From a virus: a DNA stretch of 64,000 bases. The stretch's first letter is position 1. The number at the start of each line of letters is the position of its first letter. Under the pieces are notes generated by a model. It did no database searches, was not told where the DNA came from, and saw nothing but the letters and a program-made list of their open reading frames with translations. Of the stretch, positions 1-63,464 are shown in pieces. The stretch covers positions 1 to 64,000 of IMG/VR virus record IMGVR_UViG_3300031991_000008. One strand, written 5' to 3'. Position numbers and translations under genes: made by a program.

Positions 1-143
1 GCGCGTGGTTTCGCGAGCACGGACTCGACTTCCGCGCGTTTCTGCGCGATGGCATTGAAGCCGACGAGTTGGTCTCGAAGGGCGACGCGATGGCCGTGCG
101 CGTTGTGGCGTTGAAGGCGAAGCGGGAGGGCGAGAATGGGTAA
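1..143 (+). CDS. 3' end of an upstream tail gene (partial; reads ...ALKAKREGENG*)
   Basis: Open frame running into the window start. Its stop (141-143) overlaps the ATG of the next gene. It lies just before a J-like gene, so it may be a tail-tip assembly gene. Confidence 0.35.
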   Translation, partial: AWFREHGLDFRAFLRDGIEADELVSKGDAMAVRVVALKAKREGENG

Positions 144-6268: not shown

Positions 6269-7039
6269 ATGAAGAACGGAATTCCTTGGCGCGTTCGTCG
6301 AGCGATGGAAGCGGCTAAGCGCAAGAAGCCAAAGGCCACGCCGCGCTCGACGACTCGCAAGGTGCCGGAAGATCATAACCCGCACGCACCACGCGGAATC
6401 GTTTCGTGGGTTGACGCGCCTCGCATGTTCGACGGGAAGGTCGTCGCCATCATCGGCGGCGGGCCGTCGCTTAAAGGCTATGACCTATCTTTCCTCGCCC
6501 CGTTGGTAGGTCAAAACCTAATCGGCTGCATCGCCGTAAACACGAGCTACAAGATCGCGCCGTTCGCAAACATCCTGCACTTCGCTGACTGTGAGTGGTG
6601 GCGTTGGAATGGCGAGCACGTCATGCGGACGTGGCCTACCGACAAGATCATCACCACGGCGACGAGCGATGTGACGCATGTGAACTCGCCGCGCATCAAG
6701 CGATTCTGGCGCGACCGAAACAAGTTCTCCGACGAGCGCGCGAAGCTGCACGGATGGGATAGCGGCACCCAGGCCGTCAACCTCGCCTACCACCTTGGCG
6801 CCAAGAAGATCGTTCTCTTCGGGATCGACATGCAGCCCGCGCCGGACGGCGAGACGCAATGGCATCGCGAGCACAAGCGCGTGACCTACGTCCCGAATTA
6901 CGCGACGAAGTTCGCCCCGTCCCTTGCGGAGTCCGTGCGCCAACTGGCGAAGCGGGGCGTGACCGTAGTCCGGGCGACCGAGCCCGGCATCCCCGAGGCC
7001 CGGTTGGAGGCTGTCGAACAGGCCCTAGTCCTGCCCTGA
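6269..7039 (+). CDS. GT42 sialyltransferase / Maf (DUF115, MptE-like) family putative nonulosonic-acid or sugar transferase (256 aa)
   Basis: VVAIIGGGPSLKGYDLSFLAP matches the Cst-II/Maf N-terminal motif (IIAGNGPSLKEIDYSRLP). SGTQAVNLAYHLGAKKIVLFGIDM matches Cst-II SGVYMCAVAIALGYKEIYLSGIDF. It is a paralog of 42825-43430 (shared KPAPDG block). Confidence 0.45.
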   Translation: MKNGIPWRVRRAMEAAKRKKPKATPRSTTRKVPEDHNPHAPRGIVSWVDAPRMFDGKVVAIIGGGPSLKGYDLSFLAPLVGQNLIGCIAVNTSYKIAPFANILHFADCEWWRWNGEHVMRTWPTDKIITTATSDVTHVNSPRIKRFWRDRNKFSDERAKLHGWDSGTQAVNLAYHLGAKKIVLFGIDMQPAPDGETQWHREHKRVTYVPNYATKFAPSLAESVRQLAKRGVTVVRATEPGIPEARLEAVEQALVLP

Positions 7040-29857: not shown

Positions 29858-29881
29858 GGCCTGGACTCCGTTGTGTGGCGG

Positions 29882-31215: not shown

Positions 31216-31222
31216 AACACGC

Positions 31223-41521: not shown

Positions 41522-41556
41522 CGCCCGTGTATAGGCAATTGAAACGAGGGACGACC

Positions 41557-42270
41557 ATGCAGCCACTTCGCATCTTCATCGGTTACGACAGCCGCGAGCC
41601 GGACGCTTACGACGTTTGCGCGCGGTCTCTGCGCGAGCGTAGCTCTGTGCCGCTGGCGATCTCGGCCGTAAAGCAGGACCGCTTGCGCCTGCGAGGGGTC
41701 TACACCCGCGACCCGGCCGAGAAGGCGTCTACCGAGTTCGCGTTGACGCGATTCCTTGTGCCTCATCTGACCGACTACAAGGGGTACGCGCTGTTCATGG
41801 ACTGCGACTTCCTGTGGCGCGCTGACGTGTGCGATCTGTTCGATCTCGCCGACGCCACCAAGGCTGTCAGCGTCGTTCAGCACGACTACACGCCGCGAGC
41901 ACAATGGAAGATGGACGGGCAACCCAACGTCGCGTATCCGCGCAAGAATTGGTCGTCGCTCATGCTGTTCAACTGCCAGCACCCGAACGTGCGCGAACTG
42001 ACGCCGGAAGTCGTGAATTCACGCAGCCCGTCGTGGCTGCATCAATTCAGTTGGTGCGGCGACGACGAAATCGGCGCGCTTCCGCAAGAGTGGAATTGGC
42101 TCGAAGGCGAGTACGAGTGGCCGCATGACGGCACGACGCCTGCGGCGATCCACTTCACCAACGGAGGCCCGTGGTTCGCGGACCACCGCAGCGTTCGCTT
42201 CGGCGATCTGTGGGAATACGAACTGCTCATGCTGCGGCAGGAACAACCGCTTACTCCAACCATCAAGTGA
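41557..42270 (+). CDS. GT-A fold glycosyltransferase-like protein (GT8-like; DxD motif FMDCDFL)
   Basis: IFIGYDSREPDAY, ALTRFLVP and FMDCD resemble the nucleotide-sugar-binding N-terminal strands and DxD of GT8-type transferases. Confidence 0.4.
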   Translation: MQPLRIFIGYDSREPDAYDVCARSLRERSSVPLAISAVKQDRLRLRGVYTRDPAEKASTEFALTRFLVPHLTDYKGYALFMDCDFLWRADVCDLFDLADATKAVSVVQHDYTPRAQWKMDGQPNVAYPRKNWSSLMLFNCQHPNVRELTPEVVNSRSPSWLHQFSWCGDDEIGALPQEWNWLEGEYEWPHDGTTPAAIHFTNGGPWFADHRSVRFGDLWEYELLMLRQEQPLTPTIK

Positions 42271-42279: not shown

Positions 42280-42828
42280 ATGAAGCTCATCTCTGACAGC
42301 TACCGCGCGCTCAACGCGGAACTCCACAACCGGAATCACAAGTACGGCGGCAAGGGCCACGATTGGTTGACGCGCGTTGTGCAATACGTCACGACGGCGA
42401 AGGCCGCGACGTATCTCGACTACGGCTGTGGCAAGGGCACCCTCGCTGACGCGATGCAAGAGAACTACGAACTCACGCTTCTGCCGAGCCCCGACGCAGT
42501 GTTTCGCTACGATCCAGTCACGGCGCCAGACGAACCGCAGCCCGCAGACTTCGTGACGTGTTGCGATGTGCTCGAACACATCGAACCGGAATATCTCGAC
42601 AACGTGCTCGCCGACATCAAGGCGAAGACGAAGGTGCAGGCGTTGCTCGTGATCTCGCAACGGCTCGCGAACAAGCGGCTAGCGGACGGCCGAAACGCCC
42701 ACTTGATCGTCGAAAAGACGCCGTGGTGGATGAAGCGGTTGAAGAAGCACTTCTCCGAAGTTGTCGAAGTCGATCCCATCAAGCCGACGCGCGTGGGAAT
42801 CGAATTGGCCGTTCTCGTTCGGCCGTGA
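42280..42828 (+). CDS. class I SAM-dependent methyltransferase
   Basis: Motif I LDYGCGKG and motif II FVTCCDVLEHI. Confidence 0.65.
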   Translation: MKLISDSYRALNAELHNRNHKYGGKGHDWLTRVVQYVTTAKAATYLDYGCGKGTLADAMQENYELTLLPSPDAVFRYDPVTAPDEPQPADFVTCCDVLEHIEPEYLDNVLADIKAKTKVQALLVISQRLANKRLADGRNAHLIVEKTPWWMKRLKKHFSEVVEVDPIKPTRVGIELAVLVRP

Positions 42829-43430
42829 AGCAACACATCGTTCCCGACGATTGGAAGGGCCAGACTGTCGCGATTGTGGCGTCTGGCCCCAGCGTATCGA
42901 AGTTCGACTTCGAGCGCATCGCGGGCTTGCGCACGATTGCGGTCAAGGACGGATACCTAAAGGTTCCGCGCGCGGAAGTGTTGATGATCGGGGATCACCG
43001 CTACGCTCGTCGCACGCCCGATCTTTCCGCATATCTCGGCCCGCTGATTCTCTACACCGATCCCGCGCCGCTGCCGGAAGCGCTGCACGATGCGCGCATC
43101 CAATTTATCCCGAAGGTCGCGGGCCGTGGGTTGTCGAAGCGACCGAACGAATTGCGCGGCACGTTCTCGACGACGTGTCTCGCCATCAACTACGCGGCGT
43201 TGCGCGGATCGAAGCGCATCCTGCTAGCCGGTGTGGACGCGAAGCCCGCGCCGGACGGACGCCGCTGGTTCAACGGCGACCGCAAGGAAGATTGGCATGA
43301 ACGCTACGGCCGCCAGCAATGGGGCTATCGCCGCTTGTCGGACGATCTGCGAGCACGAGCAATCGAAGTGTTCAATCTGAATTACGATTCCGCTGTGAAG
43401 ACGTTCCCGTTTTTGAAAGAGGGTGTGTGA
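42825..43430 (+). CDS. GT42/Maf (DUF115, MptE-like) family putative transferase, paralog of 6269-7039
   Basis: GTG start overlapping the previous TGA. VAIVASGPSVSKFDFERIA and STTCLAINYAALRGSKRILLAGVDAKPAPDG parallel the 6269 gene and Cst-II motifs. Confidence 0.45.
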   Translation: MKQHIVPDDWKGQTVAIVASGPSVSKFDFERIAGLRTIAVKDGYLKVPRAEVLMIGDHRYARRTPDLSAYLGPLILYTDPAPLPEALHDARIQFIPKVAGRGLSKRPNELRGTFSTTCLAINYAALRGSKRILLAGVDAKPAPDGRRWFNGDRKEDWHERYGRQQWGYRRLSDDLRARAIEVFNLNYDSAVKTFPFLKEGV

Positions 43431-44182
43431 TGCTGCCGATTATTCTTTGGTCGTGGGGCGGGAAGTTTCCCGACGCCTATATCGACAAGATGATCTCTAT
43501 GATGGATCGGCACCTGCACATGCCGCACCGATACGTCATCATCTCGGACAGCAAGACCACGCGCGAGAACTTCCACGCGAAGGGACACCAAGTGCATCCG
43601 TTGTGGTCGCACCTGCACAACATCGGTGGCAAGTGCTTCGTTCGCCTCCGTTGTTTCGACGACGCCTTCCGCACGATCATCCCCGAGCCCCGTTGGGCGT
43701 GGATTGATCTCGACATGGTGATTGTGGATGACGTGACGCCGATCTTCTCGCGCACCGAGCCCTTCTTGATGTCGGGCGTTGAACTCGGCCCACAGCCGGT
43801 GAATGGATCGCTCGTGATCGCGGATCATGGAGTCGCGCCAGAAATCTTCACCGAGTTCAACATCAACGAATGGCGTAATGAAAAGGCGCGTCTCCGCTTC
43901 GGCGGAAGCGATCAAGCCTGGATCGCGATTAAGGCCCGCCACAAGATCACCGGCATCCGTCACGAGGATGGACTGTTCTGCTACCGCGACGACATCTGTC
44001 CGCGCCACTTGTGGGCCTACGAATCGTGGCGGCAACGAAACCTCGTGGATGCGCTCAAGCACGAACCCACGGGCGGCGCGTTGCCAGACGGCGCACGCCT
44101 GATCCAATGCAACGGCCCGCACTCACCGTGGAGCGAGCGCCCGCAGCGCTTGAGCCCGTGGATTGCGGATCACTGGCGATAA
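43430..44182 (+). CDS. putative GT-A-like glycosyltransferase (DxD: WIDLDMVIVDD)
   Basis: N-terminal VIISD beta-strand-like segment, plus a hydrophobic stretch followed by DLD...DD. Weak assignment. Confidence 0.3.
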   Translation: MLPIILWSWGGKFPDAYIDKMISMMDRHLHMPHRYVIISDSKTTRENFHAKGHQVHPLWSHLHNIGGKCFVRLRCFDDAFRTIIPEPRWAWIDLDMVIVDDVTPIFSRTEPFLMSGVELGPQPVNGSLVIADHGVAPEIFTEFNINEWRNEKARLRFGGSDQAWIAIKARHKITGIRHEDGLFCYRDDICPRHLWAYESWRQRNLVDALKHEPTGGALPDGARLIQCNGPHSPWSERPQRLSPWIADHWR

Positions 44183-50165: not shown

Positions 50166-50192
50166 ACAACAGCGATCCACGGAGACACACAG

Positions 50193-50651
50193 ATGACCCT
50201 TCTCTCTCAAAATGCACCGGGCCTCGCTGGCGGCGACTCTGACGCCTACACGCAGGACAACACGATCCTCGCGGGCGTCGCACCGACTCGCACGTCCTAC
50301 GGCTACACCGTGGACGATCTCGTTCAATACTCGCTCGTCGGTCGCGTGACGATCACGGGCGAACTCAAGCTGTCCGCGTTCGCGGCGGCGGACGGTTCGC
50401 AGAATCCTATTGGCGTCACCACGCACGCCGTGTCGGCAGGCAACCAAGACTCCAACTCTTCGGCCGACTCGAACTCGGCGGTTGACGTTGAAGCCAATCG
50501 CGTCGGCTTCTACACGGACGGCGTGTTCAACTACGACCGTCTGGCGAAGGGCGCGGGCTGGACTCTCGATCTCCTGCGTCGCAACCTCGAACTCAATGGT
50601 CAGTCCATTGGCGTCGATGTGATCCGCACGGCGACGCCGACCGAATCGTAA
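50193..50651 (+). CDS. head decoration protein (lambda gpD-like)
   Basis: 152 aa between protease and capsid; composition and length match gpD. Contains an inserted DSNSSADSNS. Confidence 0.55.
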   Translation: MTLLSQNAPGLAGGDSDAYTQDNTILAGVAPTRTSYGYTVDDLVQYSLVGRVTITGELKLSAFAAADGSQNPIGVTTHAVSAGNQDSNSSADSNSAVDVEANRVGFYTDGVFNYDRLAKGAGWTLDLLRRNLELNGQSIGVDVIRTATPTES

Positions 50652-50681
50652 TCCCGAACAGCCCTCACGGAGCACAACAAC

Positions 50682-51770
50682 ATGGCTATCCAAATCCTCC
50701 CCTCCCGCACGCTGCTCGGCATCTATCGCGATGACCGCCTGGACGTGCCGCAAACCTTCTGGCGCGAACTCGGCGGCTTCACGCGCCGCACGGTCCAATC
50801 GACCCGCGAGGAAATCGCGTTCGAGAAGATCAACGCGCCGGGTCGTGAGATCGCGCCGTTCGTGCTCCCGACCAACACGGGCCGCCCGATCTACAAGCGC
50901 AAGGGCTCGACGGCCAAGACCTTCAAGCCGGGCTACATCAAGCCCCGCGATCCGGTCGTGCCGCAAGAGCAATTCTCGCGCCGCCCTGGCGATCTGTTCA
51001 CCGACGTTCCGAAGACGCCGCAGGCGAACCGCGACGCCGAGATCGTTGACATCGCGCAACGCCACCGCACGGCCATCGAGCGCCGTTGGGAATGGATGTG
51101 CGCGCAAGCGATCATCCACGGTCAAGTCGTGGTCAACTACGAAGACGGCCCGTCCGTCACCGTGGACTATGAGCGCGACTCCAACCTGACGGTCATCAAG
51201 ACGACCGATCTGTGGACGGCGAGCTACGACATCACGGGCGATCTGCAACGGTTCAAGGACCGCATGGCGAAGGCCCGCTTCGGTGCCCAAGCCGTGAACC
51301 TGATCGTCGGCGTGGAAGTCTGGCCGGTGATGCAGCAAAACGAAGCGCTGCTCAAGCGGATGGACTTGAACGTCAAGAACTCCGACGTGAACCTCAAGCG
51401 CGGCCTGATCCCGACTGTCGGCGCGCCGGAATCCCCGGCGACCTTCGTCGGCACCATCGACGGTCTGCTCAACGTGTGGGTCTACTCGGACTTCTACGAA
51501 GACGACGCGGGAAACCAAGTTGACTTCATGAATCCGCGCGACATCGTGCTCACGTCCGGCGATCCGGGCGGCGTGATGGCCTTCGGCGCCATCATGGATC
51601 ACGACGCTGATCTTCAAGCCCTCCCCGTCTTTCCGAAGATGTGGAAGAACGAAGACCCGAGCGCGATCTACATCATGCACCAATCGGCGCCGCTGCCGGT
51701 GATGCCGTTCCCGAACCGCACGTTCCACGCGCGCGTTGTGGACGAAGACTCGAACTCGGCGGGCTCGTAA
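50682..51770 (+). CDS. major capsid protein (lambda gpE family)
   Basis: 362 aa in gpE position. Ends ...VVDEDSNSAGS*. Confidence 0.7.
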   Translation: MAIQILPSRTLLGIYRDDRLDVPQTFWRELGGFTRRTVQSTREEIAFEKINAPGREIAPFVLPTNTGRPIYKRKGSTAKTFKPGYIKPRDPVVPQEQFSRRPGDLFTDVPKTPQANRDAEIVDIAQRHRTAIERRWEWMCAQAIIHGQVVVNYEDGPSVTVDYERDSNLTVIKTTDLWTASYDITGDLQRFKDRMAKARFGAQAVNLIVGVEVWPVMQQNEALLKRMDLNVKNSDVNLKRGLIPTVGAPESPATFVGTIDGLLNVWVYSDFYEDDAGNQVDFMNPRDIVLTSGDPGGVMAFGAIMDHDADLQALPVFPKMWKNEDPSAIYIMHQSAPLPVMPFPNRTFHARVVDEDSNSAGS

Positions 51771-51797
51771 CAACGGGCACGACGTAAACCGGACCAC

Positions 51798-51830
51798 GGG
51801 GCGAGCGATCAACGCTCGCCCCGTTTGTCC
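51798..51830 (+). terminator. terminator-like hairpin after the capsid gene (GGGGCGAGCG-atcaa-CGCTCGCCCC then GTTTGT)
   Basis: 10-bp perfect stem immediately 3' of the capsid stop with a short T-rich tail. Likely a partial terminator. Confidence 0.5.
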
Positions 51831-52205
51831 ACAGACCAAGAGGGAAACATGAAGATCAAGGCATTCGTGACTATCGTCGCGCCGGACGCTGAGACCGGCG
51901 AGGCAATCGAGATCAAGCCGGGTGGTATCGCGGATGTCCGCGACGACAAGGCCGAGTATTTGATCGACGAAGGCTACGCGGAAAAGGCCAAGCGCAAGGA
52001 CGAAGTGTCCGGCACGCAGTCGGCCACGGCCGCGAAGAAGTCAGGCGACCGCAAGGGCGCAACGCAGACCACGCGCGGCGGCGCTCGCCCCGAGCGCAGC
52101 ACGCGGCGCTCTCGCAAGGAACTTCTCGGCGACAAGGGTGAGAACCCGGATCGTGAGAAGGGCGAAAACGGCAAGGGCTTCGAGGAAGACTCGAACGCGG
52201 AGTAA
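51825..52205 (+). CDS. hypothetical head-associated protein (126 aa; ends ...EEDSNAE)
   Basis: ORF after the capsid gene. Low-complexity basic C-terminal half. Confidence 0.4.
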   Translation: MSTDQEGNMKIKAFVTIVAPDAETGEAIEIKPGGIADVRDDKAEYLIDEGYAEKAKRKDEVSGTQSATAAKKSGDRKGATQTTRGGARPERSTRRSRKELLGDKGENPDREKGENGKGFEEDSNAE

Positions 52206-52211
52206 GCGACA

Positions 52212-52613
52212 ATGGGATGGCGGGAAACTTTGACCGAGGCGCGGGCAGTCGTCCACGACACGATGAAGGTTCCCGTCATCCTGCTCGCATCACTTGCGAG
52301 TGTGAACGACTCCAATTCAACGGACGTGGCGCAACTCTTCGCCCGCATTCACAACAGCGACAAGGCGCTCGGCGACCAAGCCGGGACTTCACTCAACAGC
52401 GCAGAGCGCTACGAGCCGATTCAACGCGCGATCTTTTGGGTTGCGGAATTGACGGCCGCAGGCGTTACGCTCGACCGCAACATGGTCATCTCTGTGTTGG
52501 CAGGCGAAGCCTACAACATCGACACCGTTCGGCCGCAGGATCGCGAGACGATCACCGTGGAGATCACGCGGCTCGACGCAGAGGACTCGGCAGGACTGCC
52601 GTTGCCTGAATAA
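52212..52613 (+). CDS. putative head-tail connector/completion protein (133 aa)
   Basis: Position equivalent to lambda FII. Contains VNDSNSTD. Confidence 0.4.
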   Translation: MGWRETLTEARAVVHDTMKVPVILLASLASVNDSNSTDVAQLFARIHNSDKALGDQAGTSLNSAERYEPIQRAIFWVAELTAAGVTLDRNMVISVLAGEAYNIDTVRPQDRETITVEITRLDAEDSAGLPLPE

Positions 52614-53197
52614 TGGCAGGCGCCATCGAGATCACCATCCGCAATATCAGCGCGTTCGAGGAAGTCGAATCGTTGCTCAAGCGTGTGCCCATCGCAGCGC
52701 AACGCGCGATCAATCGAACGGCGTCGCACGCGCGAACTGAGTCTTCGCGACGGCTGCGTCAACAGATCAATTTCAGCGCGCGATACCTCGTGTCGAAGGA
52801 CGGCAAGATCGGTCTTGTCCCTGCATCGAAGGGTCGATTGCAAGCGCATCTCTCCGCGCAATCGCGGCCGTCGTCTCTTGCGCGCTTCGTTGTCGGCGCG
52901 GTCGGTAAGAAGACTGGCGCTCGCGTGAGCGTCGACCCAGGCGGCACGCGAACGCTGCCCGGCGCATTTCTCCTTGGTATTGGCGAGAACACGCTGCTCG
53001 CGGTGCGGTCGCCGCAGAAGCCTCGCACGGCTTACAAGCCCCGCCGCATTGGCAAGTCGCTGTGGTCGCTCTATGGTCCCTCGGTCGCGCAGGCATTGGT
53101 CACGCGCGACGGTCGCGGCATCTGGCCCGAGCTTGAGCCCGAGCTTGCAGTCATGCTCGAAAATGAATTCCTGCGGCAGATGAATTTGAAGGTGTAA
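52613..53197 (+). CDS. putative tail completion protein (lambda Z-like position, 194 aa)
   Basis: Gene order and size (lambda Z is 192 aa). Confidence 0.35.
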   Translation: MAGAIEITIRNISAFEEVESLLKRVPIAAQRAINRTASHARTESSRRLRQQINFSARYLVSKDGKIGLVPASKGRLQAHLSAQSRPSSLARFVVGAVGKKTGARVSVDPGGTRTLPGAFLLGIGENTLLAVRSPQKPRTAYKPRRIGKSLWSLYGPSVAQALVTRDGRGIWPELEPELAVMLENEFLRQMNLKV

Positions 53198-53198
53198 C

Positions 53199-53729
53199 AT
53201 GGCAGACCCGTTTCGACTCCGCGTGATGAAGAACCTGACGACGTTGCTCGAAGGAATCACCGAGTCCTCGAACTCGCCGGACGATGGCCCGCAGCACAAT
53301 CTCTCGGGCCATGTCTTCCGTGGTCGAAACATCTTCGGTGAGACTGATCCGCTGCCGATGATCGCGATCCTCGAAACCCCTGTCGCCATCGACCAATTGC
53401 CCGCGCCAGAAGAACAGGGCGCGTCGAGCGGACTGTGGGATATTTCGATCCAAGGGTTCGTCAAGGACGACAAGGAAAACCCGACCGATCCGGCATACCG
53501 ATTGGCGGCCGATGTCATCATGGCTCTCGCTGACGAGAAGCGCCGACCTGCGCTCGAACGTCAATCCAAGGGAAAGGTGGTAACGCCGCTGCTTGGCGAA
53601 TCGGGCGTGCTCGACATCTTCATCGGGAGCCCGGTCCACCGGCCGCCCGACGACATCTCGGGCAAGGCGTACTTTTGGCTGCAAATCACGGTCAAGGTGG
53701 CCGAGAAGCATAACGCCCCATACGCCTGA
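53199..53729 (+). CDS. putative tail terminator / DUF3168-like protein (176 aa)
   Basis: Position just before the tail tube gene. N-terminus ...LTTLLEGITESSNSP.... Confidence 0.35.
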   Translation: MADPFRLRVMKNLTTLLEGITESSNSPDDGPQHNLSGHVFRGRNIFGETDPLPMIAILETPVAIDQLPAPEEQGASSGLWDISIQGFVKDDKENPTDPAYRLAADVIMALADEKRRPALERQSKGKVVTPLLGESGVLDIFIGSPVHRPPDDISGKAYFWLQITVKVAEKHNAPYA

Positions 53730-53833
53730 CCCCTCCGTGGGGGCGTTGACTTTGGCTTCGGCCAAGGCTGTAGATGAGAGACGATTTTGTAAGCCGGGCG
53801 ATAAAGCCGGGCACCCTGCGTGGAGACTGACAG

Positions 53834-54658
53834 ATGGCCCAAGGCGAACCCCAAAACTATACCCTCGGTCGCGGCGAACTCTATTTCGCACGCTTCGCGA
53901 ACGAGACCACGAAGGCGCCCGCTGGCGAGCGCTACATCGGCAACACCCCCGAATTCTCGCTGACCATTTCGCAAGAAGTGCTCGATCACTTCTCGTCCGA
54001 CCGAGGCATTCGGGAAAAGGACGAGTCGATTGCGTTGCAGGTCAACCGCACCGGCACGCTGACGACCGACAACGTGAACCCGGAAAACGTCGCTCTGTTT
54101 TTCTTCGGCTCGAAGGCCGATGTCGTCGAAGCTGGCGGCGCTGTCACCGAAGAACTCGCTGCCGTGCAGCAAGAACTCTACTATCAACTCGGCGTCTCTG
54201 CGTCGCGGCCTGCGGGCGCGCGCGGCATCTCCGATCAAGACTCCTCGAACTCGGAAGGCGTGTTCCTCGTCGCCGAATCCGACTCGAACTCGCTCGGCGG
54301 CGTGGCCTTCGTTGAAGGCACCGACTACGAGATGGACTACGATCTCGGCCGCCTCTACATCAAGGCTGGCGGCGGCATCGCGAACAACACGAACCTGATC
54401 GTCTCGTATCAAGTCCGTGCCGCGACGTTCGAGCGCGTGATCTCGGGTTCGGAACCCGTCTCGGGCGTGCTGCGCTTCATCGCGCAGAACCCGACCGGCG
54501 ACGACATCGACTACTACTTCCCGTGGGTCAAGATCAGCCCGAACGGCGACTACGCGCTCAAGTCGGACGAATGGCAGACCATTCCGTTCAACATCGAAGT
54601 GCTCAAGCGCACTGATCGGGAAGCGATCTACGCTGACGGCCGCCCGACCTTCGCGTAA
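53834..54658 (+). CDS. major tail (tube) protein
   Basis: 274 aa immediately upstream of chaperones and the tape measure, followed by a strong terminator. Two SNS motifs. Confidence 0.55.
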   Translation: MAQGEPQNYTLGRGELYFARFANETTKAPAGERYIGNTPEFSLTISQEVLDHFSSDRGIREKDESIALQVNRTGTLTTDNVNPENVALFFFGSKADVVEAGGAVTEELAAVQQELYYQLGVSASRPAGARGISDQDSSNSEGVFLVAESDSNSLGGVAFVEGTDYEMDYDLGRLYIKAGGGIANNTNLIVSYQVRAATFERVISGSEPVSGVLRFIAQNPTGDDIDYYFPWVKISPNGDYALKSDEWQTIPFNIEVLKRTDREAIYADGRPTFA

Positions 54659-54686
54659 GCGTTGGGCACCACCGATCTATAGCCGA

Positions 54687-54721
54687 CGCCGGTCTCGCGC
54701 GAGGGACCGGCGTTTGCTTTT
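54687..54721 (+). terminator. rho-independent terminator (CGCCGGTC-loop-GACCGGCG then TTTGCTTTT)
   Basis: 8-bp stem, 10-nt loop and U-tract directly after the tail tube gene. Confidence 0.65.
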
Positions 54722-54769
54722 AGTAGGAGCCCGGTGTAATTTCGCCGGGTCATCCAAGAGAGGGTTCAC

Positions 54770-55249
54770 ATGGCAGGTCTTACCGCGCTCGGCTTTGAAA
54801 CGGCCGACGTAATTGCACGCAAGGCGAAGGGCGATCAGCCCGCTCGCTATCTCACCGTTCGAGGGCTCTCGGCATCCGATGTGATGCGCCTCGTCAAGAT
54901 TCACGGCCCCGCGCTCGGCCGCATGTTCGAGACCATCGTGTCCGGCAAGGTCAAGCTCGATCTCGACAGCGCCGCGATGCTGGCGGGCATGTGTCTCGAC
55001 CAAGCGCCCGCGCTGCTCTCCGACATCATTGTGGTCGCCGCCGACACGCCGCCCGAGGAAATCTTGGACGCCTTCGAGCAGGCGCAGCGTTTGCCGGTCT
55101 CGGTCCAACTTGAGGCGTTCGAGAAGATCGCCGAACTCACCTTCATCGACCAAACGCCGGGGGAGTTCGTGGAGACCGTAGTGAAGCTGCTCGGAGGGAT
55201 GAACGGTCTCCTAAGCGCCCTCAATCTCCCAAGCCCAGCAAGCCCCTAA
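54770..55249 (+). CDS. tail assembly chaperone (lambda G-like)
   Basis: 159 aa, acidic. It lies immediately before the frameshift extension and the tape measure. Confidence 0.5.
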   Translation: MAGLTALGFETADVIARKAKGDQPARYLTVRGLSASDVMRLVKIHGPALGRMFETIVSGKVKLDLDSAAMLAGMCLDQAPALLSDIIVVAADTPPEEILDAFEQAQRLPVSVQLEAFEKIAELTFIDQTPGEFVETVVKLLGGMNGLLSALNLPSPASP

Positions 55250-55500
55250 CCTTCGCCGGTTGGCTGCAAGGCATTCGGAAGGCCGTCTCCCTGCTCCGGG
55301 GCAACGGCTACCCTGACGCGCACCTGTGGCCGTTGGCGGCCGTTTGGAGCGAACACGATTTGGTGGTAGATCGGAAGAACGGTGAGTTCGCGACGAACGC
55401 GGTCTTGACCCAGGCGGCGATCTACTCGGCTCTTGGGAACGAGGGCGCCAAGGAGTTCAAGAAGATCATCGGCACGTTGCTCTCCGAAGACGAGGAATAA
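55243..55500 (+). CDS. probable -1 frameshift extension of the tail chaperone (G-T-like fusion)
   Basis: The -1 frame after ...AGC CCC TAA reads ...PLTFAGWLQGIRKAVSLLRGNGYPDAHLWPLAAVWSEHDLVVDRKNGEF...EDEE* with coding-like composition. It ends 3 nt before the tape measure ATG. Confidence 0.4.
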   Translation, partial: PLTFAGWLQGIRKAVSLLRGNGYPDAHLWPLAAVWSEHDLVVDRKNGEFATNAVLTQAAIYSALGNEGAKEFKKIIGTLLSEDEE

Positions 55501-55503
55501 CCG

Positions 55504-58500
55504 ATGGCTATCCGCGATGTCGAACTCATCATCAAGGCTCGGGACCAAGCGAGCCAAATCGCGAAGACCGTTGGTGATGCGTTCGACCGTCTCTCGACTG
55601 CCGAGACGAAGGTAGGTACGGCGTCGGACAAGGCGGGCGATCTCATCGCTCGTCTCGCTACCGAACTCGCGCAGCTTCAAGCCACCGCAGGCGGCCTCTC
55701 CGCGTTCTCCCGCGTGTCCGGGCAGATCGACCGCGCTGGCGCATCCGTCACGCGGCTGCAAACGAATCTCGCACGCGCTCAAGATGCGTTCGTGCAAACC
55801 TCCCTGCGTGCGTCGCAGACGGCGACGAACCTCGGCCTGATCGAAGCCGAAGCGAACAGCGCGCGTACTGCGTTGGCAGGACAAGAAGGCGTGCTCTCGA
55901 CTCTGCAAGCGGAGTTGGCGCGCACGAATGCGCAAGTCGCGCAGGCTGGCGCTCGGTATCGTCAGTTGACCGGCGAGCTTCGTCAAACGAAGGCACCGAG
56001 CGATGCGTTGAAGCAGAGCGTGCGCGATCAACGCGACGCGCTGATCTCTTTGGTGGAGCAACAGCTTCGCCAGACGAACGCGCTGGCCGCGCAGCAACAG
56101 GTTGTTCGCACGGCCGCCGCTACGCTCAACACCTTGGAGAAGGAAGCCGGACAAACTGCGACGCAGTTGCGTCGTGTGAACATCGAGTTCGAGAAGACGG
56201 CTATCGCTGCGCGAAATGAATCGCAAGCGGTCGAGATCGCAACGAACGAATATCAGCAATTGCAGGCTGCGGCGACGGCGGCCTCGGCGTCGCTCGGTGG
56301 CGTCGCGCTCAAGCAAGACGACATCACCGCTGCGGCTCGGCGTAACGCGGACGCGATCTCGCGCGTCACTCTCGCGCTCGCGCAACAGCAAGCTCGCGCC
56401 AGCCAATCGTCGGGTCAAGCAGCCGCGAGCGGCCCGGCCGCACAGGCGACGGCCGCGCTGCGCTCTCAAATTGCAGCGGTCGAACAAACTCGCGCAGCGT
56501 GGAAGGCCGCCGAGGGCGATGCTGCCCGTCTCGCTGTGTCGATCCGCAACGTCGCACAACCCACGGCCGCGATGCGCGCCGAGTTCACGCTGGCGACCAT
56601 TGCCGCGCGGACGGCTAAGGATGAGTTTCGTCAGCAAGAGGCCGCGTTGCGTGGTATGCGCGCAGGCTTGCAGTTCGTGCAGACCGCGTTTCAACCGTTC
56701 ACGGCGTCGGCGCGTGCTGCCGCATTGGCGCAAACGCAAACGTCGGCCGCGTCGCTCACGCTCATTCAACGGCTGTCGCTGCTCGCGCAACGGCTCATTG
56801 GTATCCGCGCTCCTGCGCAACAGGCGACGGCCGCGCTTAATGCCGCTACGACTGCGGCTGCGCGTGCGAACGCAGCGAATCCGAACCAGGCGTTCCTCGG
56901 CCTCACGCCGTCGCGCTTGCAAAACCTGTCGTTTCAAATCAACGACGTGATTACGCAGCTTGCGTCCGGCACGAGTGTTCAACAAACGCTCGCACAACAG
57001 GCCGCGCAGATCGGGCAGTTGTTCCCGAAGTTCAACAACCTGCTCATCTCGGGTCTGCGACTGCTTCCGGTCTTGGCGGCAATCGGTGTCGTGCTGTCTC
57101 CGATCATCGCGGCCTTCATCAACCTCGGCAACACGGCGAAGTCGATTCGTGAATTCAATACGGTGCTCGCCGCGACCGGCGACAGCGCGCGTATCTCGTC
57201 GCGTGAACTCGCGAACACCGCGCGTGCCATCGACGAGTACGGCGGTTCTCTCGAAGACGCCATTGCCATCGAGCGCGAATTCCTGACGCAAGGGATCGCC
57301 ATCGACCACATGGAAGACTTGGCGAACGCGGCGACGAATGTCGGTCGCGCGTTCGGCATCGAAGCGACGGAAGCCGCGACGAAGTTCACGCGAGCGATCA
57401 ATGGCAGTCTCGACGATGTGCTGTCGCTGGACCGTGAGATCAACTTCCTCACGGCGTCCGAACGCGAGCGCATCCGCGCACTGAATGAATCGACCGACGC
57501 TACCACGCGCGACGCTCGCGAAGCAGAGCAGCGGCAGATCGTCTACGAAGCGTTGATCCGCCAAAGCGATCAGATCGCAGCGAACTCTCGCGGCCCGTGG
57601 TCGCAAGCGTTCCGCACGTTGGGCCAAGCGTTCAACGATGTTGTGCGCGCGTTCGAGAACACGGGCATCATTCAAGCGCTCGGCCGTCAGTTCGACGAAC
57701 TCGGTCAGAAGGTCAACGGCGCCGCACAGAATTTCCGCGTCGGCTTCGCGTTCCTCACCGGCGGCCGTCAAGGTCTCGTGCGCTTGGCAGAACGGCAACA
57801 AGCTGACCGCGCTTCCGGCGATCCGCGTGATCCTGATTCCGCTGTCGCGCAACGTGCGGCCGAAGCCCGCGCCGCGCAGCAACGTGAGTTCAATCGCGAA
57901 CTTGATCGCACTCTCGAACGTCGCCAACTCGAAGTCCGGCTCTCCGGTGCGTCGCGTGAAGCTGCGGCCGGTGAGCGTGCGGTGTTCGACTTGCAGAACG
58001 ACGCCCGCCGCGCTGGTGTCACGCTCACGCAAGAGCAGATCAGCGCCACCCGTACTGCGGCCGAGGCCGAAGAACGCGCTCGTGCAGGGCGTCGCCAAGG
58101 CATCTCTGACACGAATAGCCTGATCCGCCGTCAGCGCGAATTTAATCTCGATCTCGAACGCGAGAACGCTCAACGCGCTCTGCAAATTCGGCTGCTTGGT
58201 ATGACGGCTCGGCAGGCGGCCGTTGAATCGGCTATCGAGCAAGCGCGCATCCGCGCGGCAGAACGTCGTGTCGAGATCACGGATCGTCAGATCGAACAAA
58301 TCCGAGAGAGCGCCGAAGCGCTGTTCGACGCGCAGCAGGCCGAGACGCAACGCAACGAACTGTTGCAGATGGAAATCGAACTGCGCGGCATCCTCATTCA
58401 CAACATGGAGCGAGTCTCTGTAGAGCAGCAAATCCAAGAGGAAGCGCAGCTTCGCAACATCGACTTGACCACGCAATATGGTCAAGCGTGGTCCGCCATG

Positions 58501-59400
58501 CGGACGCGAGTGATCGAGGCTACGCGCTCGGTCGAAGATTTGCGTGAAGCGCAGAGCCGTGTTGGCGCACTAGCACAGAACCTTCGCAACATGGAACGCG
58601 ACTTCCGCACGGCGCGGGAGAACGGAGAGACCCGGGCGCAACTTGCGGAGCGGATGGAAGCTCTCGAAGAACAACGGCGCCTGCTTGTTGAAGCGCGCGA
58701 CGCTGCGATCCAACTGGCCGAAGCTCTCGGCGACGAAGAAGCTCTCGAACGCCTGCGCGCCACGAATTCCGAAATCCGTGTGCAGCGTGAAGAGACGTTG
58801 AGCACGGCCGACGCGAACCGGATGCTCGCAGACATGCTCACTCAAGCCATCGACAAGTCGGCCGAACAGATCGCGCTTGCTATTGACGGCACGCAGGATT
58901 GGGGCGACGCGCTCACCGCTATCGGTGACATCTTCCGACAGTTCGCGTCAGACTTCTTGCGGCAAATCGCGAACATGATTATCCAGCAGTTGATCCTCAA
59001 TGCGCTGCAATCGTCCGGCTTCGGCGGCGCTGTGTCCGGCGCCGTGAACGCCGTCACTCGCCACGGCGGCGGCATGGCAGGCTCGGGCGGCCCGCGCCGT
59101 CGTGTCGATCCTCGCATCTTCGTCGGCGCTCGCAAGTTCCACGGCGGCGGTGTCGCGGGTTTGACCAAGGACGAAGTGCCCGCGATCCTCAAGCGCGGCG
59201 AAGAAGTTCTCACGGCCGCCGATCCGCGCCACGTTGCGAACGGCGGACAAAGTGGTGGCGGCGTTAACGTGCGAAACGTGAACGTGTTTGACGCGACCGA
59301 AGTTTTGCAACAAGCCTTGTCTCGCTCGGGCGGCGAGAAGGTGATCCTCAACTATGTGCGCGAAAATCCGAGCGCATTCCGCAGTGCATTGGGAGTCTAA
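55504..59400 (+). CDS. tail tape measure protein (1298 aa)
   Basis: Very long Ala/Gln/Arg-rich coiled-coil protein in the canonical position after the G/T chaperones. Confidence 0.8.
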   Translation: MAIRDVELIIKARDQASQIAKTVGDAFDRLSTAETKVGTASDKAGDLIARLATELAQLQATAGGLSAFSRVSGQIDRAGASVTRLQTNLARAQDAFVQTSLRASQTATNLGLIEAEANSARTALAGQEGVLSTLQAELARTNAQVAQAGARYRQLTGELRQTKAPSDALKQSVRDQRDALISLVEQQLRQTNALAAQQQVVRTAAATLNTLEKEAGQTATQLRRVNIEFEKTAIAARNESQAVEIATNEYQQLQAAATAASASLGGVALKQDDITAAARRNADAISRVTLALAQQQARASQSSGQAAASGPAAQATAALRSQIAAVEQTRAAWKAAEGDAARLAVSIRNVAQPTAAMRAEFTLATIAARTAKDEFRQQEAALRGMRAGLQFVQTAFQPFTASARAAALAQTQTSAASLTLIQRLSLLAQRLIGIRAPAQQATAALNAATTAAARANAANPNQAFLGLTPSRLQNLSFQINDVITQLASGTSVQQTLAQQAAQIGQLFPKFNNLLISGLRLLPVLAAIGVVLSPIIAAFINLGNTAKSIREFNTVLAATGDSARISSRELANTARAIDEYGGSLEDAIAIEREFLTQGIAIDHMEDLANAATNVGRAFGIEATEAATKFTRAINGSLDDVLSLDREINFLTASERERIRALNESTDATTRDAREAEQRQIVYEALIRQSDQIAANSRGPWSQAFRTLGQAFNDVVRAFENTGIIQALGRQFDELGQKVNGAAQNFRVGFAFLTGGRQGLVRLAERQQADRASGDPRDPDSAVAQRAAEARAAQQREFNRELDRTLERRQLEVRLSGASREAAAGERAVFDLQNDARRAGVTLTQEQISATRTAAEAEERARAGRRQGISDTNSLIRRQREFNLDLERENAQRALQIRLLGMTARQAAVESAIEQARIRAAERRVEITDRQIEQIRESAEALFDAQQAETQRNELLQMEIELRGILIHNMERVSVEQQIQEEAQLRNIDLTTQYGQAWSAMRTRVIEATRSVEDLREAQSRVGALAQNLRNMERDFRTARENGETRAQLAERMEALEEQRRLLVEARDAAIQLAEALGDEEALERLRATNSEIRVQREETLSTADANRMLADMLTQAIDKSAEQIALAIDGTQDWGDALTAIGDIFRQFASDFLRQIANMIIQQLILNALQSSGFGGAVSGAVNAVTRHGGGMAGSGGPRRRVDPRIFVGARKFHGGGVAGLTKDEVPAILKRGEEVLTAADPRHVANGGQSGGGVNVRNVNVFDATEVLQQALSRSGGEKVILNYVRENPSAFRSALGV

Positions 59401-59401
59401 G

Positions 59402-59635
59402 ATGAGCATTGATCTTTCCGCCGTCGCGGCCGAATCGAAGAAGGGTGAAGGTGGCTACGCTTTCCGAGCGGGTATCGACGCCGAGAAGACCGCGCAACTG
59501 CTTGAGCAGATGGCGGCACAGCTTCGTGCGACCAACATCATCCCCACGAAGTGCTCGGTCACGTCCGAGTTCGTCAGCGGCGATTGGGAACGCGGTCGGC
59601 TCGTGCTTGAGTTCAACGAGAAGGTGTTTCTGTAA
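59402..59635 (+). CDS. small tail protein (lambda M-like position, 77 aa)
   Basis: ORF directly after the tape measure gene. Confidence 0.35.
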   Translation: MSIDLSAVAAESKKGEGGYAFRAGIDAEKTAQLLEQMAAQLRATNIIPTKCSVTSEFVSGDWERGRLVLEFNEKVFL

Positions 59636-60669
59636 TGGCCTACGAAACTGCAACCGCTTCGTCGTCGTCGGACTTCTACGACCGCCTCATCACGTTCCTG
59701 ACGACGGACAGCGATCTCGTCGCGAACTCGCAGAATTGGGCCGTCGTCTGGCGGCCCGACTCGAACAGCACGGGCGAGAACGGAACGGACATTGTGCTCC
59801 GTGGTCCGGGTTTGTCTGCGGCCGATCAGGTCTACATTGGGTTCCGGCTCGTCGAAGACCTGCTCAACGACTCCGCGTGGATCGAAATGGTCGGCATGAC
59901 CGGCATCATCACGAGCGCGCTCAACTACGATCAGCACGTCAACGTCACCACCAACGGCGGCGTGCGGATGCACTTGCGCGGAAACAACCCGATGGACTAT
60001 TGGTTCGTCGCGAACGGCCGTCGTTTCGTTGTGGTGGCTCAAGTCTCGACGATCTACGAAACGCTGTACGGCGGTCTGTTCCTGCCCTACGGCGAACCGA
60101 CTCAATACACCTACCCGCTGTTCATTGGCGGTGCGAGCGGCAACAGTTCGGGGTCGGGCGAGATCGAAGATTGGCGTTCGACTGCTACGGCGCACTCGCT
60201 GTTTCACCGACCGCAAATCAATACGTCGCCGTCCGGGCCTTATGGCCCGAGCGCGTACATGCTCAATCCTGCGGGGGAGTGGATGACGTGCGGCATCACG
60301 GACAATGAAAACCACGACTGCGGAATGACCCCGTGGGAGTTCCACGACGACGGAGACGATTGGCGGATCGAAAAGGCCAGCACCACGGGGCAAAAGGGAT
60401 ACGCGGATCACCACGCTCGAATCATCCAGGCGTTCGGTGGAGACTTCCCACTCGCGCCTATTGGCATCTGCCGTCGTGGACCGAACCGTCAGTTCTACGG
60501 CGTGCTCGAAGGCGTGTATCACGCGCCGGGACGTGGCAACTCCGCGGAGAATGTGGTGTTGGCAAACAACCTCGATCACGTCTGTTTCCCGAACGTGTTC
60601 CGAACGGACATCCAAGAATTTTTCGCTGTGCAAATCGGCTTCCCCGAAGACTCCAACTCGCGCTCGTAA
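59635..60669 (+). CDS. putative distal tail / baseplate protein (344 aa; ends ...PEDSNSRS)
   Basis: Position after the tape measure. SNS motifs at residue ~42 and at the C-terminus. Confidence 0.4.
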   Translation: MAYETATASSSSDFYDRLITFLTTDSDLVANSQNWAVVWRPDSNSTGENGTDIVLRGPGLSAADQVYIGFRLVEDLLNDSAWIEMVGMTGIITSALNYDQHVNVTTNGGVRMHLRGNNPMDYWFVANGRRFVVVAQVSTIYETLYGGLFLPYGEPTQYTYPLFIGGASGNSSGSGEIEDWRSTATAHSLFHRPQINTSPSGPYGPSAYMLNPAGEWMTCGITDNENHDCGMTPWEFHDDGDDWRIEKASTTGQKGYADHHARIIQAFGGDFPLAPIGICRRGPNRQFYGVLEGVYHAPGRGNSAENVVLANNLDHVCFPNVFRTDIQEFFAVQIGFPEDSNSRS

Positions 60670-60678
60670 GGATCAGCA

Positions 60679-61728
60679 ATGGCCTACTCTGTCCACAACA
60701 TCTCTGCGATCACCGACGTTCCCGCGTTGGTCGGCGCGTTCGCTGCGGCTAACGGGTTTGTCACCGATCTCACGAACCCTAACATCCCGATCATCTCGTG
60801 CCCCGGCGACTCGAACAGCGCCGAACCGAACTTGGAATTTCAAATCCAAGCGACGATCTCGGGAACGAACAATCAGAATCACGATTGTTGGTGGAGCGAA
60901 GCTCGCGGCGGATCGAATTCTTTCGCCGACGATGACATCGCTCGCATCACGTCTCCTAAGCTCAACGTCGGAGCGGCTACGACGGCGAACCCCACGGTGT
61001 CGCTGCCTACTCGATTGCACATCTTCGGCACGGCTGTAGCCACGGATAATCCGTTCATCGCGGTCTCCATCGAGTACGGCTTCAACAGCCACCGTCACTT
61101 GTATTTTGGCAAGATCGAATCGCGCGGGAACTACACCGGACGCGACGTGATCGCGTGCGCAGGCGGCCGTCGCGGCTCCACTTCCTCGTCGCTCGAACAC
61201 TGGACCGACGACGCTTCCTCTCACTTTCTCGCATCGGGTTTCTCGTCCGTGCAAGGAACGGGCAACTATGGTGGTGCGCGGATCATCCACGCGGACAATC
61301 CGACTGAATGGCGCCGCTTTGACGCGCCATTAGGTACGAGCACGCCATTGGACGAATATACGAACCAACAAATCAACGGGGGTTTCCAAGACGGATTCAA
61401 CGACGGTTGGGTCATGGACGGCAAGGCCGCCTTCGCGGGCGTGAACATCCTCGTGCCGATCAACCTCTACGCGCCGATCCCGATCTCGGGCAACACCGAC
61501 GTTTCGTTCGTCCCGCTCGGGCGTCTTCCGGGTGTTCGCATGGTCAACATGCAGGACTTGGAACCGGGACAACAGATTGAAGTCGGTAACGAAACGTGGC
61601 GCGTGTTTCCGCACACGACCAAGCGCGATGAGACCACGCAACTCAACGGGGTCGGCGGCGTGAACTGGCCGACCTACGAGACGAGCTACTATCTCGGTTA
61701 CGCATATCTCGAAGAGGATGCTCCGTAA
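60679..61728 (+). CDS. putative distal tail / baseplate protein (349 aa)
   Basis: Also starts MAY... with DSNS near residue 45. It may be a distant paralog of the previous gene. Confidence 0.4.
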   Translation: MAYSVHNISAITDVPALVGAFAAANGFVTDLTNPNIPIISCPGDSNSAEPNLEFQIQATISGTNNQNHDCWWSEARGGSNSFADDDIARITSPKLNVGAATTANPTVSLPTRLHIFGTAVATDNPFIAVSIEYGFNSHRHLYFGKIESRGNYTGRDVIACAGGRRGSTSSSLEHWTDDASSHFLASGFSSVQGTGNYGGARIIHADNPTEWRRFDAPLGTSTPLDEYTNQQINGGFQDGFNDGWVMDGKAAFAGVNILVPINLYAPIPISGNTDVSFVPLGRLPGVRMVNMQDLEPGQQIEVGNETWRVFPHTTKRDETTQLNGVGGVNWPTYETSYYLGYAYLEEDAP

Positions 61729-63464
61729 TGGCTACGGGCTACATCGAACCGATCATGTCTGCATTCGAGCGCGGCGGCCAAGGGTCGTTCGTGCTTGCTT
61801 CGCTTCCGCAAAACGAGCGGTTGCTGGCGCACGCCGATGTCGATCCGTTCTATGGTGACTTCTCGTTTCAGAATCCTGATCCGATCTCGCAGTCATACGG
61901 CGGGAACCGAGAGTTCGCGTTTCTCGACGACTTCTATTTCCGCGTCTATCTGATCCCGCAAATCTTGGACTTTGGCGCCATCGTTACGACCGTTACGCGA
62001 GAGATCACGGTGTGGAACGCATACTTCACGCCCGTCATCTTGCAGAGCATCACGCCGTTCTTCGGCGAAGAAGTTGTGCAGGGTGGTCCGGCTTTGCCGA
62101 ATTCGATCCCGCCGCTGACGATCCGCGCGTGGGAATTCACCGTCACGACCGAAGGCCCCCCGACGCTCGAAGAATCCTACACTTGGACGTTCGACACGGG
62201 CGAAGTGTTCACGCTGCCCGTGACGGGAACGCGCTCGGTTCTGTGGCCGTTCCTGCCCAATTGGGGCACGCCGTTCCGGTACACGCTGGAATATGATACG
62301 TCGGTCTTCACTGCGCGCAGCGGCCGTGAGCAACGTCGCGCGGATCGCGAGCATCCGCGTCTTTCTCTTGAGTTCGACATCATCGTTCACAGCGACAAGC
62401 TCGCGAACTATCGTCGCCTCATGGCGTTGTGGCAGGACCGCCCGTTCATTGTGTCGGACATTTCTCGCAACGTGACCGCCGAGACGGCACTGCTCGCGGG
62501 ACAGAACACGGTCACGGTGAGCGACGACCCGACGTGGATTGGTGTTGAAGATCGCGCGGTCGTACTCGTCACGGGTTCGGGCGAAGCGCAGCAGGTTGGC
62601 TCGCGTGTGATCGACAACATCGACACGTCCAACAATCTGCTTACGTTCAAGGACACTGATACGGTTGATTGGCCGGTCGGTACTAAGATTTATGCGGTCG
62701 TCGTCGCCAACCTCGAAGACGAACGCACGTTGCAACGGCACACGACGAACATTCGTTCGGGCTCGATTCGATTCAAGGTCTTGCCCGGAACCGAACTCGT
62801 CGAAGCGCCGCCGCTCGCTGACGAATATTTTCTCGACCGCGAGTTGTTTCTGTTCAAGCCGAATTGGGGATCGCAGAACGACGCGCTCGACGCGCATCCG
62901 ACCGAGTACGTGGACTACGGCGTTGGCCGACTCGCACGGTTCTCCCCGCTCGCGTATCCGCAACAAACGTGGACGCAGACTTACGTTGGACGCGACGCCG
63001 AGGGTATTCGCGAACTGCTCGACGTGTTTCGCCGCGCCAAGGGTCGTCAGGGCGAATTCTACATGCCGACGTGGGAAAACGATCTTGTCCCGAGTGTGCG
63101 ACTCAACGGAGCGACGCTTGGTATGCAGATCGCCGGGCTCGACGTACTCAACGCATACGGAACCGACCCGACGAAGCAGGCCGTGATGGTAGAGCTTGTT
63201 GATGGCACGCGCATCTTCCGGGCTATCGACGAAGTTGTCGTACACCCGAACGAAGTCGATACCCTCATCAACATGACGCAAACTTGGGACGACACCATTG
63301 AACTCGAAGACATCCATCAAGTGTCGTGGCTCATGTGCTGGCGCTTCTCGACGGACGATCTCACGGCAGAGTTTTTGACGAACAGCGTTGCGAACTTGTC
63401 TATGAGTGTTTCGTCTCTCGAAGACCTGCCTGCGGAATCAGATGAAGGGTCGAACTCGCCATGA
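61728..63464 (+). CDS. distal tail protein containing a DUF2460-like (GTA g12-like) region (578 aa)
   Basis: Internal ...SGREQRRADREHPRLSLEFDI... resembles the DUF2460 GHEQRNARW...R core. It directly precedes a DUF2163 gene, as in GTA and alphaproteobacterial siphophages. Ends ...DEGSNSP*. Confidence 0.45.
   Translation: MATGYIEPIMSAFERGGQGSFVLASLPQNERLLAHADVDPFYGDFSFQNPDPISQSYGGNREFAFLDDFYFRVYLIPQILDFGAIVTTVTREITVWNAYFTPVILQSITPFFGEEVVQGGPALPNSIPPLTIRAWEFTVTTEGPPTLEESYTWTFDTGEVFTLPVTGTRSVLWPFLPNWGTPFRYTLEYDTSVFTARSGREQRRADREHPRLSLEFDIIVHSDKLANYRRLMALWQDRPFIVSDISRNVTAETALLAGQNTVTVSDDPTWIGVEDRAVVLVTGSGEAQQVGSRVIDNIDTSNNLLTFKDTDTVDWPVGTKIYAVVVANLEDERTLQRHTTNIRSGSIRFKVLPGTELVEAPPLADEYFLDRELFLFKPNWGSQNDALDAHPTEYVDYGVGRLARFSPLAYPQQTWTQTYVGRDAEGIRELLDVFRRAKGRQGEFYMPTWENDLVPSVRLNGATLGMQIAGLDVLNAYGTDPTKQAVMVELVDGTRIFRAIDEVVVHPNEVDTLINMTQTWDDTIELEDIHQVSWLMCWRFSTDDLTAEFLTNSVANLSMSVSSLEDLPAESDEGSNSP

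Follow-up and report, generated by a model that had tools for sequence, protein, structure and literature searches.

The DNA analysed here is a 64,000-nucleotide stretch from a virus (IMG/VR virus record IMGVR_UViG_3300031991_000008, positions 1 to 64,000; the whole stretch is referred to as the window). It is a phage genome of ~61% GC with a circular layout, in which a short peptide word, Asp-Ser-Asn-Ser (DSNS), recurs throughout the virion proteins and a cassette of candidate glycosylation genes adjoins the genes for these proteins. The late module extends from terS (44197) to 63464; its continuation, at 136-7039, holds the tail-tip and fibre genes. Across the virion proteins of the window (7,368 residues), the tripeptide SNS was observed 27 times against 1.6 expected, and DSNS 18 times against 0.10 expected, a 180-fold excess; the remaining proteins (~12,000 residues) contain one SNS, against 0.9 expected, and no DSNS. 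This enrichment is far above chance (Fisher p = 8e-11). Among the proteins of the window, no tripeptide is more enriched than SNS, and no tetrapeptide is as common as DSNS. The copies, which we call tags, are listed below together with the genes that carry them (functions from PHROG and Pfam; L-numbers such as L001 and L002 designate related or compared loci).

48791: portal, MSNSI, an SNS without acidic context
50448..50477, plus strand: two DSNS copies (QDSNSSADSNSA) in the head decoration protein (gene at 50193, plus strand), SNS codons at 50451 and 50469
51747..51758, plus strand: DSNS in the C-terminal extension (ending VVDEDSNSAGS) of the lambda-E-type major capsid protein (gene at 50682, plus strand), SNS codons at 51750
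52188..52199, plus strand: DSNA variant at the C-terminus (ending EEDSNAE) of the product of the gene at 51825, a degenerate copy that is not kept in L001
52308..52319, plus strand: DSNS in the product of the gene at 52212 (phrog_4858, head-tail joining region), SNS codons at 52311
53265..53276, plus strand: SSNS (TESSNSP) in the tail terminator (gene at 53199), SNS codons at 53268
54242..54295, plus strand: two tags (DSSNSE ... SDSNSL) in a loop of the major tail (tube) protein (gene at 53834), SNS codons at 54245 and 54284
59758..59769, plus strand: DSNS near the N-terminus of the first distal tail protein (59635-60669), SNS codons at 59761, kept in L001 and L002
60649..60660, plus strand: DSNS at the C-terminus (ending PEDSNSRS) of the same protein, SNS codons at 60652
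60808..60819, plus strand: DSNS in the second distal tail protein (60679-61728), SNS codons at 60811
60910-60921, plus strand: a weaker copy, GGSNSF (GSNS), in the same protein, SNS codons at 60913
63447..63458, plus strand: C-terminal GSNS (ending DEGSNSP) in the tail assembly protein (61728-63464), SNS codons at 63450
136..6265, plus strand: 14 tags (4 + 7 + 3) in the tail-tip (J-like) protein (gene at 136), the tail fibre (gene at 2553) and a 920-residue protein

Further late genes with functions from the same sources are the following.

52613: tail completion protein
54770: chaperone
55504: tape measure protein

The SNS copies named by the original prediction are all present, at or within 1 nucleotide (nt) of the positions it gave, and its claim that the motif is specific to virion proteins agrees with the counts above. 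For the gene at 60679 it listed GDSNSA and left out the second copy, GGSNSF; the orthologue in L002 retains both. The proteins it held to be free of the motif do lack it in the case of terminase, protease/scaffold, chaperones and tape measure, which are internal to the particle or not part of it, but not in the case of the portal. In total, the ~27 copies are spread over at least 13 proteins, the fibres and the connector included. Their consensus can be written [D/E/N]-D-S-N-S-[A/G/S]-[G/A], and the DSNS copies are single and discrete rather than arranged in tandem. Three of the 13 SNS copies of the head-tail module (12 in the genes of 50193-63464 plus that of the portal) lie within eight residues of a C-terminus, and some proteins of relatives end literally in EDSNS. 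The residues D, S, N and S in the 11 other possible orders occur 0-1 times each, indicating that DSNS is a specific word and not a reflection of Ser/Asn-rich composition. We found no report of a DSNS tag in the literature searched.

Judged from alignments, the tags are grafted onto conserved folds, at loops and termini of exposed proteins. Homologues at 35-60% identity lack the tagged loops and C-terminal extensions, as had been predicted for the SNS-bearing regions, and relatives at 55-75% identity carry DSNS at the same places amid variable flanking residues. In the decoration protein, the pair of tags sits in a ~12-residue insertion that is missing from the homologues in L006, L007 and L009, and it is kept as a pair in L001, L002, L003, L021 and L022. 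The capsid tag forms a 9-residue C-terminal extension, where homologues of 36-41% identity stop at ...ARV(V/I)A; this extension is kept in L001, L002, L010 and L022 and is missing from L021, which carries the decoration and terminator tags, showing that tag sites are gained or lost singly. The orthologue of the 52212 protein reads PYDSNSG in L001, L002 and L022. The terminator tag is a short insertion missing from five homologues, and reads EDSNS or DDSNS in L001, L002, L010, L021 and L022. The first distal tail protein has orthologues that end in EDSNS (L001 and L010) or EDSNSAS (L002), and the C-terminus of its orthologue in L027, a locus without the cassette, has no tag.

The original prediction had placed the tags of both the capsid and the tail tube on terminal extensions, which holds for the capsid; those of the tube lie in an internal loop insertion of ~20 residues, one on either side of a short strand, and both are coil in the AlphaFold2 (AF2) model. 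Tube homologues of ~60% identity lack this loop, and some relatives have a third copy in it. Among 39 tagged tube homologues, the residues S, N and S are 99-100% conserved and D is 87% conserved, with no flanking position exceeding 55%.

Directly upstream of terS lie four cassette genes whose stops and starts overlap or abut and which are coupled to the late genes; a further transferase gene follows the fibre genes.

41473..42270, plus strand: GT8/GT24-like nucleotide-sugar transferase, first gene of the cassette (phrog_28018, 3e-61; Pfam GT8, E = 0.009)
42280..42828, plus strand: S-adenosylmethionine (SAM)-dependent methyltransferase (Methyltransf_23)
42825..43430, plus strand: GT42/Maf-like (MptE-like) transferase with a GTG start (phrog_4603 'alpha-2,3-sialyltransferase', 2e-11)
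43427..44182, plus strand: GTx, a predicted glycosyltransferase of the GT-A, GT8-type fold (phrog_1962), directly upstream of terS
6269..7039, plus strand: second GT42/Maf-like transferase (phrog_4603, 1e-28), starting 4 nt past the last fibre gene

The phage-encoded glycosyltransferases that had been envisaged by analogy are thus represented by several proteins that resemble glycosyltransferases and whose genes share an operon with the late genes, and cassette and tag co-occur across relatives. Homologues of the 41473 gene in Synechococcus, Pelagibacter, Stenotrophomonas and Caulobacter phages are annotated as GT24, galT-like or nucleoside diphosphate (NDP)-sugar transferases. The gene at 42825..43430 was overlooked by a simple gene call based on GC content at third codon positions (GC3). 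GTx is confidently predicted to adopt a GT8-type GT-A fold with an invariant DxD motif: its AF2 model has a predicted local distance difference test (pLDDT) score of 95, the top Foldseek matches are glycogenin, LgtC and GlyE (probability 1.0, template modelling (TM) scores 0.53-0.59), and D94 and D96 of the DxD are invariant in 40 sequences. It shares fold, DxD and size with these GT8 enzymes and with PmgQ of phage P1 (phrog_1962), but differs from the GT8 family in having no Pfam match and only 9-15% identity to solved structures. PmgQ, a distant sequence relative of GTx encoded in a late 'putative morphogenetic' operon, is non-essential and uncharacterised (PMC10695390). In uncultured phages, some proteins fuse GTx/GT8-like and MptE-like domains. 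Searches of the PDB with single sequences gave no matches, the weak ones coming from profiles only. Paralogy of the two GT-A genes was considered and set aside, an hhalign comparison of GTx with the 41473 gene being not significant.

To compare the distribution of tag and cassette, relatives were gathered through the capsid, through the genomic contexts of GTx and through those of tail tube homologues; further sets comprised 76 terL-related metagenome loci with 10-kb flanks and 80 viral contigs with GTx relatives. All cassette-bearing related loci in which structural genes are covered have 2-11 DSNS copies, at homologous places; of the cassette-free loci, ~30 have none and two have one. The cassette-free L027 shares 60% identity with the window in the tube and 52% in the capsid. 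Upstream of its terS, at 1-274, it has a different gene of 285 codons, which is cut by the locus end and whose visible C-terminal part reads ...WNSNSLVDAVMNGVPIYAGS....

At lower identity (26-45%), relatives of GTx are found in or beside head-tail modules together with MptE-like and methyltransferase genes, and sometimes with GT2, GT-D or ATP-grasp genes. Similar cassettes occupy such positions in unrelated phages, namely L016, L017, L019 and the isolates Tetraselmis viridis virus S20 and Caulobacter CcrSC, a placement which supports a virion-related role; Tetraselmis viridis virus S20 and Caulobacter CcrSC have no tag. A scan of the collection for paired DSNS-coding DNA returned the same clade and mostly SD/SN tandem repeats of low-GC phages, so the discrete tag appears specific to one clade.

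L016 (3343, 10056), which is unrelated and has an HK97-type capsid, encodes a GTx 39% identical to that of the window, along with two MptE-like proteins and a methyltransferase, between the genes for its capsid and its connector. Of its two DSNS copies, one lies in the portal and one in the head-tail connector, and this phage may belong to a second lineage that uses the tag. Many phages with distant GTx relatives also encode collagen-like repeat proteins (GKDG, GERG, GATG) near the cassette (L019, 518-1864; L116, L130, L144, L145, L150 and L176), and such enzymes may have these proteins as a further class of substrates.

From these sequence patterns we propose, with a probability of roughly 0.6, that DSNS is a compact tag marking the acceptor sites at which enzymes of the phage glycosylate virion proteins in the cytoplasm. 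A short portable tag would have been inserted by evolution into solvent-exposed loops and termini (of the decoration protein, capsid, 52212 protein, terminator, tube, distal tail proteins and fibres), and the late-expressed cassette would read it in the cytoplasm. The two GT-A (GT8/GT24-like) and two GT42/Maf-like transferases would build a small oligosaccharide on Ser2, Asn3 or Ser4 of the tag, which the SAM methyltransferase would probably cap with a methyl group and which may include a nonulosonic acid. The enzyme set itself (GT-A hexosyl-type, GT42/Maf-type and methyltransferase) suggests a short glycan. The whole particle would come to be coated with glycans, and the benefit could be shielding, stability or evasion of host sensors. 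We are more doubtful of a fuller version, to which we give somewhat less than even odds, in which DSNS would be a minimal sequon and a self-contained cytoplasmic machine would coat every exposed virion protein, fibres included, with a methylated glycan in which a nonulosonic acid may be included.

It should be noted that several observations weigh against glycosylation of the tag. The Pfam GT8 (PF01501) score of the 41473 gene is 16.1 bits, below the cut-off of 24.3; the profile of the GTx family matches GT8 structures at E = 0.007-0.03 only; and PF01973 (MptE-like) scores 27.8 bits for the 6269 gene and 16.1 for the 42825 gene against a cut-off of 34.6. The matches of the Maf-like family profile to Campylobacter Cst-II (E = 0.001) and to Maf (5mu5, E = 0.024) are marginal. 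Genes for nucleotide-sugar synthesis, including that of cytidine monophosphate (CMP)-nonulosonic acid, were not found in the window. In the terL tree, the cassette-positive loci group in a single clade, so the association of tag and cassette counts as one co-inheritance event. The distant GTx relatives (75 loci) show no DSNS enrichment, with 2 copies in L016 only, so the tag may be read by an enzyme other than GTx. One DSNS (GDDSNSEAP) is found in the terS product of L001 (3501), which is not a virion protein. A last such point, the codon bias at the first serine of the tag, is given with the codon analysis below.

The strongest rival, which we nevertheless consider unlikely, gives the tag another function, such as Asn methylation by the methyltransferase of the cassette, phosphorylation, deamidation or isoaspartate formation at Asn-Ser, or binding of a host or phage factor; the transferases would then act on host envelope glycans or on phage DNA. 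Asn-Ser is a deamidation-prone pair, the cassette always includes a SAM methyltransferase, and DNA-modifying phage glycosyltransferases are known; the enzymes are, moreover, tied to the tag solely by the co-inheritance in one clade, and the distant GTx relatives without DSNS point the same way. Modification of DNA is countered by the genes scanned, among which there is none of hydroxymethyl-pyrimidine or TET type, and a protein methyl mark alone is hard to square with four to five sugar-transferase-like genes. The confinement of the tag to exposed virion proteins and the presence of such cassettes inside the head-tail modules of unrelated phages also speak against this rival.

A second possibility is that the conserved element is a DNA or RNA motif of the late transcript, GACTCSAAY, which contains a GANTC methylation site, and that the peptide is its by-product. 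The word is indeed strand-biased, with 23 forward-strand and 2 reverse-strand copies, but 20 of the former lie in frame within virion genes, the in-gene tag copies are all in frame, and the virion copies share one reading frame relative to the genes. Codons were analysed at 67 tagged sites, from the window and L001, L002, L003, L010, L021 and L022. The first Ser is TCN in 63 of the 67, so that a GANTC site falls at the tag Asp-Ser each time, and ordinary Asp-Ser pairs use AGY in 35% of cases; this bias is unexplained. The second Ser is free to be AGC (AGY in 22% of the 67 sites versus 25% genome-wide), and codons for Asp, Asn and Ser vary between orthologous sites: the capsid C-terminal tag is written with four codon sets in four relatives (GAC TCG AAC TCG; GAC TCC AAC TCA; GAT TCG AAC TCT; GAC TCG AAC AGC). 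Such synonymous differences indicate selection on the peptide. GANTC is not enriched overall (237 observed versus 225 expected), and placement at C-termini and in loop insertions is a protein-level pattern. On frame, synonymous variation and placement, we reject a nucleotide-level motif as highly improbable.

That the tags arose by chance, or from the low complexity of surface loops rich in Ser, Asn and Asp, can practically be dismissed: virion proteins are somewhat richer in S (6.8% versus 5.2% in the rest) and N (4.6% versus 2.9%), and SNSDSNSD-type tandem repeats occur in many unrelated low-GC phages, but the 180-fold excess of one residue order, the discreteness of the copies and the conservation of four residues amid variable flanks effectively refute it.

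If DSNS is an acceptor for virion glycosylation, its closest functional analogue is, by analogy of arrangement and outcome, the virion glycosylation of mycobacteriophages. To our knowledge, phage-encoded virion glycosylation has been shown experimentally for mycobacteriophages only, and we know of no compact sequon defined for it. It was reportedly described in mycobacteriophage Che8 and its relatives by Freeman et al. in 2023 (Cell Host Microbe 31:1216, cited in PMC11256854). What the Che8-like system and the one proposed here from sequence would share is phage-encoded glycosyltransferases for capsid and tail tube, acceptor regions that are add-ons to a conserved fold, and a glycan coat as the outcome. 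They differ in their enzymes, which are unrelated at BLAST level: tblastn searches with GTx, a distant GTx relative, the GT8/GT24-like gene and the Maf-like gene of the cassette against 50,697 phage records gave no mycobacteriophage match. They also differ in the acceptor, here one exact tetrapeptide used ~27 times in at least 13 proteins, including fibres and connector, in the position of the tail tube sites, here internal loops, and in the position of the cassette, here upstream of terS.

The putative enzymes and the tag can likewise be compared with other glycosylation systems. Maf enzymes are cytoplasmic and O-glycosylate exposed Ser/Thr of flagellins, which self-assemble into a filament, and the known donors of GT42/Maf enzymes are CMP-nonulosonic acids; we know of no sequon established for Maf enzymes. 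The resemblance of the two phage genes to Maf and to Cst-II-like GT42 enzymes consists in matches to phrog_4603, to the MptE-like Pfam family and, by profile, to Cst-II and Maf structures, which are marginal; the phage proteins, of ~200-250 residues, differ in having none of the flanking domains of the 666-residue Maf structure (5mu5). Chlorovirus PBCV-1 glycosylates its capsid with virus-encoded cytoplasmic transferases and methyltransferases, at atypical Asn sites. The system proposed here would resemble it in the combination of transferases with methyltransferase, the cytoplasmic location and the modification of capsid proteins at non-canonical sites, whereas PBCV-1 has a eukaryotic host and other sites, and the phage carries its tag on all external virion proteins. 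Bacterial N-glycosylation uses the sequons D/E-X-N-X-S/T (PglB) and N-X-S/T (HMW1C/NGT). Like the PglB sequon, DSNS is short and has an acidic residue two positions ahead of the Asn. Either sequon is, however, ruled out, since S/T follows two residues past the Asn in only 6 of the 27 copies and some proteins of relatives end in DSNS; the tag is thus not a canonical N-glycosylation sequon. No STT3/PglB or GT41 was found in Pfam, PHROG and NCBIfam scans of the window genes, in which small open reading frames (ORFs) were only partly covered.

If glycosylation of the tag is correct, virion glycosylation would extend to a different phage lineage, and DSNS would be the first phage 'glycotag' to be defined, one that could be moved to any loop or end of a protein. 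Tag and cassette would form a directly testable enzyme-substrate pair, as any reporter can be given the tag and the four to five genes can be co-expressed with it, and could offer a small tag for the cytoplasmic glyco-engineering of proteins and of therapeutic phages. A function is also suggested for a widespread and uncharacterised phage gene set, phrog_1962 (including P1 PmgQ), phrog_4603 and phrog_28018, which lies in or beside the structural modules of hundreds of viral contigs.

The isolated phages nearest to the window, at ~41% capsid identity, are Achromobacter AchV4, Rhizobium PPF1, Xylella Salvo and Ruegeria V16, and the AF2 model of the tail tube is nearest to the tube structures of the flagellotropic phages YSD1 and Chi (35% identity, TM 0.75). 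The host of this phage lineage is probably Gram-negative. A 958-residue antisense 'shadow' ORF (48963-51839, minus strand) covers the protease, decoration and capsid genes, and was chosen over these real genes by the simple GC3-based gene call. The intergenic region at 30420-31220, upstream of a primase/VapE gene, contains about four G-rich GGGGTGCGCC-like repeats followed by repeated (GC)TAATTACAAA boxes, and is probably an origin or operator region. Minus-strand genes for a protein with a dATP/dGTP diphosphohydrolase N-terminal domain (PF18909; 14156-15118), a MazG pyrophosphohydrolase (15694-16242) and an MT-A70 methyltransferase (9997-10689) may constitute a nucleotide-pool or DNA-modification module. 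A cluster of GANTC (CcrM-type) sites at 27300-30450, where small minus-strand early genes are located, has ~43 sites in 3 kb, 13 of them in 29000-29500, versus ~3.5 per kb elsewhere, which hints at an alphaproteobacterial host or at methylation-coupled regulation.

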